From the NCBI GenBank assembly GCA_044227305.1, contig JBGAFJ010000003.1, forward strand, positions 89,667 to 153,666: a stretch of DNA of 64,000 nucleotides. The letters are read 5' to 3'. A program made the translations under genes and the position numbers. Origin of the DNA: Cyclobacteriaceae bacterium (GTDB lineage Bacteria; Bacteroidota; Bacteroidia; Cytophagales; Cyclobacteriaceae). Below the pieces are notes generated by a model that did not search any database, had not been told where the DNA came from, and saw nothing but the letters and a program-made list of their open reading frames with translations. The first letter of the stretch is position 1; every line of letters starts with the position of its first letter. Positions 40,234 through 64,000 of this stretch are shown in pieces.

Positions 40234-40299
40234 TTGGCAGTTGACAATTTCTCGCTACGCGAGAACAGTTGCGCAGCGAAGGGCTTGTCAACTGTCAAC
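40232..40299. repeat. CAGTTGGCAA-family hairpin overlapping two stop codons
   Basis: gttggcagttgacaa ... ttgtcaactgtcaac arms enclosing TTCTCGC-tac-GCGAGAA. Confidence 0.75.
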
Positions 40300-41454
40300 C
40301 CTCCTACTTCCGGAATACAACTCATACTCCATCAGTCTACAGTCGATCATGGCGTTATAAAACTCAACACGACGACTTGCTTTTAATCCGATCTTCTTCG
40401 CGAGGTCGAGATTCCCCGTAAAAATATACCCAGTGTACCCCTGGCATTTCTTTTTCATGAAATCACCGATGCGGGCATAAGTTTGTTCCAACTCGACAAT
40501 ATCTCCAAGGCGATCGCCGTATTCCGGGTTGAAATAGATGACGCCGGGCATTTCCGGGACATTCGTTTTTTCAAAATCACACACATCGAAATCGATCATT
40601 TCCTCAACCTCTGCAATTCCTGCGTTCACTTTTGAAATCTCAACGGCATCGTCACTGATGTCTGTAGCAATGATTTTCAAATCGGTGGCATCTATCACCT
40701 GCGAGTCGATGCGTGCATATTCGTCGCGATACATCACCCCATCATATCCCTTTATATGCATAAAGGCATAATTTGATCGATACAAACCCGGCACTCGATT
40801 CGTCGCAATCAGGGCCGCTTCAATGGCAATCGTAGACGATCCACACATTGGATTCACGAGGGGCGATTTTCTATCCCACTTTGTCGCGAGCAGCGTTGCC
40901 GCAGCAAGCCCCTCTAGCATGGGTGCCTTTCCCGGAATCTTCCGGTACCCGTGTTTTGCCAACGTCTCACCGGATGTGTCAAGAAATATTTCAGCATGAT
41001 CGTCCTTCCAGAAAAGATTGATCACCGTCTGATCGAGTTCTGGGCCTGAGTCCGGACGTTTACTGGTTTCCCGACGAATGCGATCGGCAATTGCGTCTTT
41101 GACTTTCACATTCATGAACATGGAGCTGTTCACCGTAAAGTGATCGACGTTGCTCGTGATCGAAATATAGCCCTGGTCGGGAATGATATTTTCCCAGGGG
41201 TAACGGATCAGGGTGTTGTAAACATCCTCTGGATTGCTGGCGCGAAATTTCTTTAACGAGAACAGCACCTGGCTTGCGCACCTGAGATTAAGATTGAGCC
41301 GGATACAGTCTTTGAGTGTCCCCTTTAGTTCGACCCCAGTCTGAAATAGCCGCTCTGGAGTAAATCCCAGTGCCTCAACTTCCATTTTGACATAAGGCGC
41401 AAGTCGTTTCTTACAGGTAACGATGATTGAACCGGGTTCGTTGAAACTGATCAA
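40288..41454 (-). CDS. THUMP-domain class I SAM-dependent RNA methyltransferase (RlmL-N / YpsC-like)
   Basis: LNLRCASQVL, LDTSGETLAKHGYR, APMLEGLAA, NPMCGSSTI and NPEYGDRL motifs. Confidence 0.9.
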   Translation of the reverse strand: MISFNEPGSIIVTCKKRLAPYVKMEVEALGFTPERLFQTGVELKGTLKDCIRLNLNLRCASQVLFSLKKFRASNPEDVYNTLIRYPWENIIPDQGYISITSNVDHFTVNSSMFMNVKVKDAIADRIRRETSKRPDSGPELDQTVINLFWKDDHAEIFLDTSGETLAKHGYRKIPGKAPMLEGLAAATLLATKWDRKSPLVNPMCGSSTIAIEAALIATNRVPGLYRSNYAFMHIKGYDGVMYRDEYARIDSQVIDATDLKIIATDISDDAVEISKVNAGIAEVEEMIDFDVCDFEKTNVPEMPGVIYFNPEYGDRLGDIVELEQTYARIGDFMKKKCQGYTGYIFTGNLDLAKKIGLKASRRVEFYNAMIDCRLMEYELYSGSRRVDS

Positions 41455-41476
41455 TGGAATGAATTAAAGATGTAAA

Positions 41477-42146
41477 ACTCGGAATATTAAATACAAAACA
41501 GAAAAATGAGCCACGGAAGACACAGATTAACACGGAGAACTCATCCCGGTCTTTCCGTGTCATCCGTGGCTAAAAATTAATTGAGCACGTCCTTCAACAC
41601 CTGCACCGAGTTCACCTCTCCGAAATTATGAATATGCTCGGAATAATAAATACAAGAAAAATATTTAGCCACGGAGGACACAGATTAAACACGGAGAAAT
41701 ACAAAAAATCATCCGTGTCCTTCCGTGTCTTCCGTGGCTAACAAAGATCAACTCAGCACATCTTTCTACACCTGCACCGAGTTCACCTCTCCGAAATTAT
41801 GAATATGCTCGGAATAATACATACAAGAAAAATATTTAGCCACGGAGGACACAGATTTACACGGAGAAATACAAAAATCATCCGTGCCTTTCCGTGTCTT
41901 CCGTGGCTAACAAAGATCAACTCAGCACATCTTTCAACACCTGCACCGACTTCACCTCTCCGAAATTATCAATGTGCTCGGAATAATAAATACAAGAAAA
42001 ATATTTAGGCACGGAGGACACAGATTTACACGGAGAAATACAAAAAATCATCCGTGTATTTCCGTGGCTTCCGTGGCTAACAAAGATCAACTCAGCACAT
42101 CTTTCAACACCTGCACCGACTTCATCTCTCCGAAATTATCAATGTG
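41477..42146. repeat. Four-unit tandem array (159-171 bp): AT-rich linker, ~70-bp hairpin and a copy of the last 60 nt of recO
   Basis: Units start at about 41477, 41636, 41807 and 41976. Hairpins TAGCCACGG...CCGTGGCTA at 41509-41572, 41666-41740, 41837-41909 and 42006-42079. recO-tail copies at 41577, 41748 and 41917, plus the gene itself at 42087. Confidence 0.95.
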
Positions 42147-42752
42147 CATCGCATAAAATCGTAACAAACTTTCCAGTAGATTCTTCCGGCTGGCATAACT
42201 CAGGCTCACGTTATCCTTCAGATCCGCCTTCAAAAGTTTTTCCAACGCGGGTTCGTCTTCTTTCTCCACCAGCCACACACCCAATACGTCGTCCTTATTC
42301 TGGGGACCGAACCCCAGGTAGTGACTGAGTTTAATCAGAAAGATCAAATGAAAGTTTTCGGGCGCCTCTGATTCATCAAGACTAATCAGTGCGCCGATCA
42401 AAAATTCACAAATTTCCTCCGCGTGACTCTGATCCTTAACCGCCTTGTTTAATATCTCATTAACAAAAAGCGCAATCGCAGATTTTCTGATGTCACTGGT
42501 GAGTGATTGGTATGAGTGGATACATTTCACTTCCTTGATGCGGAGTATACTTGCGTTCTCACGATAGTAAACCACAAGGTCCAGCAAAGTCAAAGGCTGA
42601 AACAGGGCAATCTTATTTTTTGCAGACTTGCTCCTTACACCGTTGACGATGTAGCTCTGCAGACCAAACTGAGCAGTGAAAATATTTACGATGATGGACG
42701 TCTCACCGTATTTGGTGAACCTGAAAACAACACCACGCGTTTTGTGAAGCAT
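42087..42752 (-). CDS. recO: DNA repair protein RecO
   Basis: MLHKTRGVVFRFTKYGETSIIVNIFTAQFGLQSYIVNGVR OB-fold start, LFQPLTLLDLV motif, and C-terminal FGEMKSVQVLKDVL. Confidence 0.93.
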   Translation of the reverse strand: MLHKTRGVVFRFTKYGETSIIVNIFTAQFGLQSYIVNGVRSKSAKNKIALFQPLTLLDLVVYYRENASILRIKEVKCIHSYQSLTSDIRKSAIALFVNEILNKAVKDQSHAEEICEFLIGALISLDESEAPENFHLIFLIKLSHYLGFGPQNKDDVLGVWLVEKEDEPALEKLLKADLKDNVSLSYASRKNLLESLLRFYAMHIDNFGEMKSVQVLKDVLS

Positions 42753-63562: not shown

Positions 63563-64000
63563 CATAAAAAAGACACAATTCGCCACAAGTCACCAAGACT
63601 CAAAGGAGCCGACACAAAGTCTCTAAGACTCAAAGAAGCACAAAGGCGATTGGTATTGCGGTAAATTTAAACATACTCGGAAATAAAATATTTATATCAC
63701 TTGTACTTGTGCATAAATGAAGACACAAATCCGCCACAAAGTCACCAAAGCTCAAAGGAGCACAAAGCGGTACTTGTTATCAGTATAAAATCAGAAAAAG
63801 AAATCCTGGTGTCACTTCGTGCCCTGGTCCATAAAAAAGACACAATTCGCCACAAAGTCACCAAGACTCAAAGGAGCCGACACAAAGTCTCTAAGACTCA
63901 AAGAAGCACAAAGGCGATTGGTATCGCGGTAAGTTTTAACAAACTCAGAAATAAAATATTCGTGTCACTTTGTTTCATGACGCATAAATAACACGATTCC
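63563..64000. repeat. Tandem array of CACAAAG-type imperfect hairpin units, truncated by the window edge
   Basis: Units begin with CATAAA at 63563, 63712, 63830 and 63983. Units A and C are near-identical over their first ~95 nt. Confidence 0.9.

Follow-up and report, generated by a model that had tools for sequence, protein, structure and literature searches.

Local tandem duplication around a REP-like hairpin as the probable origin of a recO tail array in a Cyclobacteriaceae genome

Downstream of recO in the genome of a Cyclobacteriaceae bacterium, the last codons of the gene recur three more times, each time followed by a hairpin, and the locus raises the question of how a gene comes to be trailed by copies of its own 3′ end. 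In the window (the whole stretch of 64,000 nt that was analysed), recO is an open reading frame of 221 aa on the minus strand (42087..42752) with matches to Pfam RecO_N (1.2e-19) and RecO_C (3e-12), and orthologues were found in 36 of 41 related genomes. Its conserved downstream neighbour encodes an RlmL/THUMP-type methyltransferase (40288..41454, minus strand; Pfam UPF0020, 7e-36, with THUMP and RlmL_1st). The gap between the two genes is ~700 nt here vs 21-36 nt in most close relatives, beyond the nearest two (L055 and L051). The original prediction described an array in this gap and read it as a miniature, enzyme-less, site-specific integration system that keeps recO intact. Its description (the array and its coordinates, the mismatch counts, the distal codons, the hairpins and the THUMP gene downstream) was confirmed in every detail. 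As to origin, the array very probably arose by local tandem duplication around a pre-existing REP-like hairpin and was later reshuffled by unequal crossing-over.

The array consists of four head-to-tail units of ~170 nt each on the minus strand (41478-42146). A repeat search of the array returned four copies with spacings of 171, 169 and 170, and TRF reported 41478-42147 with a period of 169, 4.0 copies, 90% matches and a score of 1021. Each unit is laid out as the last 60 nt of recO with the stop codon, 4-7 nt, a hairpin of 65-80 nt and an AT-rich linker of ~30 nt ending in CCGAG. The gene-proximal unit u0 (41977..42146, minus strand, 170 nt) opens with the last 60 nt of recO itself (42087-42146), the live tail, and continues with TCTTTGT, a hairpin at ~42005-42080 and an AT-rich linker ending in CCGAG (fold of -33.4 kcal/mol, z -7.1). 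Unit u1 (41808..41976, minus strand, 169 nt; z -8.7) is 96.4% identical to u0 and has a pseudo-tail with 1 mismatch to the live 60-nt tail, a hairpin at ~41836-41910 and a linker. The pseudo-tail of u2 (41637..41807, minus strand, 171 nt; z -8.5) carries 5 mismatches, including a TTG>TAG change that places a TAG inside the tail, and is followed by a hairpin at ~41665-41741 and a linker; on its site patterns, this pseudo-tail is chimeric. The distal unit u3 (41478..41636, minus strand, 159 nt; z -7.1) is 84-88% identical to the other units and holds the oldest pseudo-tail, with 9 mismatches and an end reading aat taa, and a hairpin at ~41509-41571 whose loop is shorter. Folding energies of the four hairpins range from -33 to -45 kcal/mol (z -7.1 to -8.7), none of 200 shuffles was as stable, and each hairpin arm is made of three NCACGGA subrepeats of 9-10 nt facing their complements. 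The 170-nt unit contains no plausible ORF and no recombinase. A CRISPR-like reading of the array can be ruled out, since there are no unique spacers in it and the units are full repeats of 170 nt.

That misassembly inflated one tail-plus-hairpin to four units is scarcely credible. Expansion by error would yield near-identical copies; the units are 84-96% identical, which makes assembly collapse or expansion unlikely, and their differences of 4-16% include unit-specific substitutions, indels and a structured chimeric pattern. Comparable diverged arrays are also present at many loci of this genome, an assembly of 8 contigs scored 100% complete.

The state that preceded the array can be read from relatives. 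The nearest two by RecO identity, L051 (79%) and L055 (78%), each have a single hairpin of the same design directly 3′ of the recO stop codon. In the window, the u3 linker runs on into an unduplicated remnant of the ancestral recO–THUMP spacer (41455..41477, minus strand; TTTTACATCTTTAATTCATTCCA), which aligns with GAGTTTTACGTCTAACAATTTTCC of L055 and with CATCTTTGTA... of the relatives L022 and L023. The recO–THUMP spacer of L055 aligns with the u3 linker together with this unduplicated right flank, with the shared pattern GGCTCAT..TTCTG..TTTTG.ATT..TAATAT..GAGTTTTAC.TCT. The single hairpin in both relatives and the homology of the spacer show that the array is a later expansion in this lineage, in situ around a hairpin that was already present. 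Since u3 is 84-88% identical to the other units over the whole unit, linker included, and its linker and flank have their homologue in the single-copy L055 spacer, the units are copies of local DNA, and an imported element with a replacement tail is thereby excluded. A foreign replacement-tail model in general was rejected on the same ground: in every unit, both linker and hairpin show homology to the ancestral spacer of this locus. The subrepeats of the hairpin behind recO vary by species, with CACAA/TTGTG in L051 (3166-3280) and CACGGA both in L055 (3166-3330) and in the window (41505-42082). This difference at one site suggests that the hairpin family has evolved in concert within each genome or else that the position has undergone repeated replacement.

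Site patterns within the array show how the units are related. Pairwise identities are 96.4% for u0-u1, 94.1% for u0-u2, 95.3% for u1-u2 and 84-88% for u3 against the others. Columns 3, 7 and 27 of the alignment group the units as (u0,u1)(u2,u3). Over the stretch that runs from column 45 to the last one, u3 stands alone at more than 30 sites, and u2 goes with u0/u1 except at column 121. The first ~27 nt of the u2 tail are thus u3-like and the remainder is u0/u1-like, with one breakpoint. Unit u2 is a clean chimera of a u3 5′ part and a u0-type 3′ part, the signature of unequal crossing-over, and a single breakpoint is the product expected when a u3 copy and a u0-type copy pair out of register and cross over. 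Both features of tandem duplication followed by unequal crossing-over are therefore present at this locus: a single-copy orthologous site in relatives and a chimeric unit.

The tails also record the constraint under which each copy evolved. Polarisation with outgroups marks cat, cat and aac, which u2 and u3 have in common, as derived states. Two of the three alter residues that all relatives conserve (D>H, K>N), so pseudo-tails decay without coding constraint. The live tail has itself changed: its ATG (Met) is derived, and u1, u2 and u3 keep the ancestral GTG (GTG/Val in the u1 pseudo-tail). The u3 tail ends in ttg aag gac gtg ctc aat taa, where live recO has ttg aaa gat gtg ctg agt tga, and four of the five differences in these last seven codons are silent (P ~0.009, simulation). 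At the five sites L055 and L051 do not have the same state, which makes the polarity of the changes ambiguous. Of the four differences in the first 13 codons, just one is silent. The excess of silent changes in the last seven codons of the distal tail, pointed out in the original prediction, is real. On the simplest reading, u3 would preserve an older recO end in the form it had when the first duplication occurred, as a fossil that is decaying and is neither recoded nor foreign, while the live copy kept evolving under constraint and its changes were later copied into u1 and u2. The terminal aat (Asn) of u3 is the state found in more distant relatives. Of the proposal that the distal tail is an ancestral or foreign recO end, the ancestral half thus stands and the foreign, recoded half falls to the local homology of the unit.

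Arrays of this kind can also be found elsewhere in the genome. The 4556 long ORFs were searched for downstream copies of their own last 45 nt; 6 scored, against 0 in a reverse-complement control, and a gapped version of the scan returned 13 ORFs vs ~2.5 expected. After false positives had been removed, three further arrays of CACGGA hairpins were seen to copy the 3′ end of a neighbouring gene as well, as had been anticipated for other copies of the hairpin. A helicase-like gene (C3:685406-687361) has its last 52 nt with the stop codon copied twice, each copy followed directly by GCCACGGA; a membrane-protein gene (C3:298144-299442) has its last ~70 nt copied three times in diverged form; and at C2:90234-91226 the stop region recurs in six units. 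In both sister genomes, the arrays are absent from the helicase and membrane-protein loci, the two loci checked. Four other candidates were rejected as cases of tail copying: the ORF at C4:11713-12225 is spurious and traverses an array, the candidates at C4:962441 and C7:440613 are 8-nt microsatellites, and C5:103967-105676 lies within repeated coding DNA. Separately, a cation-efflux-like gene ending in ...HIEPDK* (G000:C4:1011122-1011440, where G000 is the genome analysed here) is followed ~130 nt downstream by a second, diverged copy of its final ~75 nt, stop codon included. This copy stands past an unrelated terminator-like hairpin (GTGTCGGACATTTAAAATGTCCGACAC) and is a one-off with no link to the CACGGA family.

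These loci bear on the integration model, in which a miniature element made of tail, hairpin and linker inserts site-specifically and repeatedly at the 3′ end of recO, supplying a new tail and pushing the older tails downstream. Such an element would account for the growth of mismatches with distance from the gene (1, 5 and 9), for the mostly silent differences in the last seven codons of the distal tail and for the occurrence of gene tails in other hairpin arrays. Nevertheless, the model is very improbable. The units and linkers are homologous to the local single-copy spacer of L055 and hence not imported; the unit is found nowhere else in the genome or in public collections and encodes no recombinase; and u2 is a recombinant, which represents no independent insertion. 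Moreover, the polarity is reversed at the helicase locus, where the live tail is matched best by the distal copy (44/45) and least well by the middle one. A general polarity is thus lacking, and the predicted displacement of older tails by gene-proximal additions is not supported. The tails at different loci are unrelated and differ in length, which leaves no common attachment site. A related model in which a long target site is duplicated (n elements, n+1 tails) was rejected as well, as the number of tails equals the number of hairpins at both the recO and the helicase loci.

The junctions of the arrays likewise speak against site-specific integration. They differ at every locus and share no common motif. 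The junction enters the gene by 60, 52, ~70, ~11-20 or ~0-8 nt, with the other end in the spacer or inside the hairpin, and the coding sequence captured with its stop codon ranges from 11 to 70 nt across loci. Such varied, motif-less junctions argue against a site-specific enzyme and for illegitimate recombination, and with units made of local DNA they leave the integration system of the original prediction unsupported. The helicase junction has GACTTT..GTG microhomology. At the recO junction, formed by the first duplication, exact microhomology is ~1 nt (7/12 when imperfect), so classical slippage is not clearly indicated for that event. A Ku homologue (156 bits) is encoded at G000:C2:394170-394718; bacterial non-homologous end joining is probably available in this genome and would offer a route to duplications with little microhomology. 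That recO has remained intact calls for no dedicated system, since a tandem duplication overlapping the 3′ end of a gene always leaves one complete gene.

The hairpin belongs to a previously undescribed family of this Cytophagales genome that behaves like REP/REPIN clusters. A strict hairpin pattern found 31 hairpins in 17 loci and 0 in a shuffled genome. With the 670-nt array as the query, ~50 looser matches were obtained genome-wide, all through the hairpin part alone; the recO tail and linker have no other copy in the genome, and the array junction has no match in genome and metagenome collections. Many hairpins of the CACGGA family sit within 50 nt of a stop codon, and a duplicated segment larger than the hairpin would, because of this position, carry a gene tail along. 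The hairpins may act as 3′ terminators or stabilisers. A simple terminator and promoter scan of the locus found nothing, with stems that exceed the pattern limits of that scan, and Rfam at permissive thresholds gave only sub-threshold miRNA-like matches of the kind produced by generic long hairpins. Other small palindromes are nested within members of the family: CCTGCCTGCGCGTAGCGGCTTCGGCGAAGGCAGG is found in a CACGGA hairpin at G000:C3:687361-687690 and in the sister recO hairpin (L055:3177-3330), the mini-hairpin CCCGATAGCCATCGGG within CACGGA hairpins at several loci, and further nested palindromes at G000:C3:740874, C4:1002334 and C4:1006926. CACGGA hairpins thus seem to be insertion targets for other elements.

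The prediction had also raised the possibility that the hairpin flanks Y1/RAYT genes, and this could be compared directly. The genome has six Y1_Tnp matches; none is flanked by a CACGGA hairpin, and CACRGA motifs are not above background within 1.2 kb of any of the six. The hairpin ends lack the GTAG/CGTC tag, the commonest 4-mer outside GCCAC being TTTA (9/70 ends). Judged from these features, the CACGGA hairpin resembles a REP in placement and structure but lacks the defining features of RAYT-linked REPs. The RAYT-like gene examined, at C5:399183, has arrays of another REP, GGGYCGCTCCTACGGAGC, at its flank. In this region (G000:C5:399078-400700), two tandem arrays of that small palindrome, with periods of 134 and 98, come after a Y1_Tnp gene with an open frame of 184 aa (89.9 bits), and the whole resembles the classical pairing of a RAYT with its REP, here in a Cytophagales genome.

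Long-period arrays are strongly concentrated at the hairpins. Arrays occur at 6 of the 17 hairpin loci against 30 of the ~4483 other intergenic regions (odds ratio 81, Fisher P 2e-9), and all six at hairpin loci are arrays with locus-specific spacers. The genome has 36 arrays with a period of at least 60 nt in 5.1 Mb, and their units fold better than random segments do (median z -2.2 vs -0.45). A second member of this set is located in the window at 63563-64000 (G000:C5:153229-153755), with a period of 268, 2 copies and 90% matches, and overlaps the first 34 nt (5′ end) of a minus-strand ORF. The largest intergenic arrays, at G000:C4:956630-957956, C5:634071-635066 and C7:420883-421660, have periods of 175, 163 and 147 nt and 5-8 copies; the CACGGA motif is absent from all three and their units fold strongly, which indicates that several unrelated hairpin families form arrays in this genome.

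An enrichment of about 80-fold exceeds what passive tolerance of duplications would give and leaves room for an active process directed by the hairpin. In one version, a nuclease that recognises the CACGGA hairpin (an HUH/RAYT-like or another structure-specific enzyme being the candidates) would nick at or near it, and the hairpin together with the neighbouring DNA would be re-replicated locally or duplicated in a rolling manner. The enrichment at hairpin loci and the strong folding of long-period units both fit such copying in place, and a second, unexplained mechanism of formation was likewise inferred by Bertels and Rainey for ordered REPIN clusters (PMC3116915). In the sister genome G041, no such arrays were seen at ten hairpin loci and in a 400-kb sample, a hint of lineage-specific activity that does not reach significance (P ~0.06) and that comes from a MAG whose assembly may collapse arrays. 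Against a dedicated nuclease, unit boundaries vary by locus without a common motif, the RAYT-like gene at C5:399183 and the other Y1_Tnp matches stand apart from the family, and ordinary homologous unequal exchange accounts for the u2 chimera. Copying by such a nuclease is accordingly judged unlikely. The broader proposal is somewhat less so and remains a doubtful one: the hairpin of CACGGA subrepeats would be REP-like, would have no RAYT and would actively induce its own duplication in place along with that of adjoining DNA. If true, it would give a concrete, tractable case of the second, unexplained way in which REP clusters form, and the fossil gene tails would serve as built-in clocks, in which one copy is constrained and the others drift, so that duplications could be dated and ordered.

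Under local tandem duplication, the preferred reading, the following course of events can be proposed. In the common ancestor shared with the two nearest relatives, the recO stop codon was already followed directly by a REP-like palindrome. A segment of ~170 nt, from 60 nt inside recO through the hairpin to ~30 nt of spacer, would then have been duplicated in tandem by illegitimate recombination with almost no homology at the junction. The gene-proximal copy would have stayed the working end of the gene, accepting mostly silent changes from then on, and the distal copy, u3, no longer coding, would have decayed as a fossil. Once the two had diverged by ~12-16%, u3 and the proximal unit would have recombined by unequal crossing-over to give the chimeric u2, and a further, recent duplication would have added u1 as the fourth unit. 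The same process would have arisen independently at several other hairpins of the CACGGA family. The hairpin itself may promote the duplications, for instance through fork stalling, template switching or breakage, possibly with Ku-dependent end joining.

This account removes an attractive but unsupported reading, that of an enzyme-less integration system protecting recO. It also brings together four loci at which the duplicated flank takes in the last codons of a gene. Captured tails at such loci form a natural record of cluster growth, covering first duplication, divergence and unequal exchange, and allow a direct comparison between constrained and unconstrained copies of one sequence. In annotation, it would be wrong to call pseudo-tails small ORFs or to take them as signs of integration.

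Several known systems resemble the recO array in part. Integrative elements that restore the 3′ end of their target, such as genomic islands and phages targeting tRNA or tmRNA genes, similarly leave the gene intact, with a second copy of its 3′ end, displaced or duplicated, farther downstream. Unlike these, the recO array has no integrase, no cargo and no att core common to loci, and its duplicate belongs to a complete head-to-tail repeat of local DNA whose unit is confined to this site. The BIMEs of E. coli (mosaics of REPs) share clustered extragenic palindromes with regular spacing between genes. In BIMEs, however, the orientation of REPs alternates, linker motifs are defined and there is a link to RAYTs, whereas the recO array is composed of complete hairpins in direct orientation with locus-specific spacers. 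The dynamics are those of minisatellites or VNTRs, with head-to-tail units in constant phase, a single copy in relatives, an inner unit that is a one-breakpoint chimera and an edge unit that is the most diverged. What sets the array apart from ordinary tandem duplication or VNTRs is the strong tie to one hairpin family (odds ratio ~81), which suggests non-random sites.

The closest parallel is found in REP and REPIN clusters. REPIN clusters are tandem repeats that include flanking sequences, the largest having four units and more than 700 bp (Bertels and Rainey, PMC3116915), and REPs can form tandem series together with stretches of flanking DNA that vary in length, and often lie right against stop codons (Di Nocera et al. 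2013, PMC3733652). The CACGGA hairpins are likewise extragenic hairpin-forming palindromes near gene 3′ ends and stop codons, and some of their loci are tandem, with a unit made of the hairpin and a locus-specific flank and with a similar size (four units, ~700 bp). REPs typically exceed 100 copies. The CACGGA family is dispersed and extragenic but falls far under that number (~31 strict copies in 17 loci), carries no GTAG/CGTC tag and flanks no RAYT gene. Each of its hairpin arms is made of three subrepeats of 9-10 nt, the flank in its arrays demonstrably holds 11-70 nt of coding sequence with a stop codon, and its host is a Cytophagales bacterium, not a proteobacterium. With these differences, the recO array is the same phenomenon as the published REP/REPIN clusters, independent of any RAYT link and arising from a different hairpin family in a different phylum.
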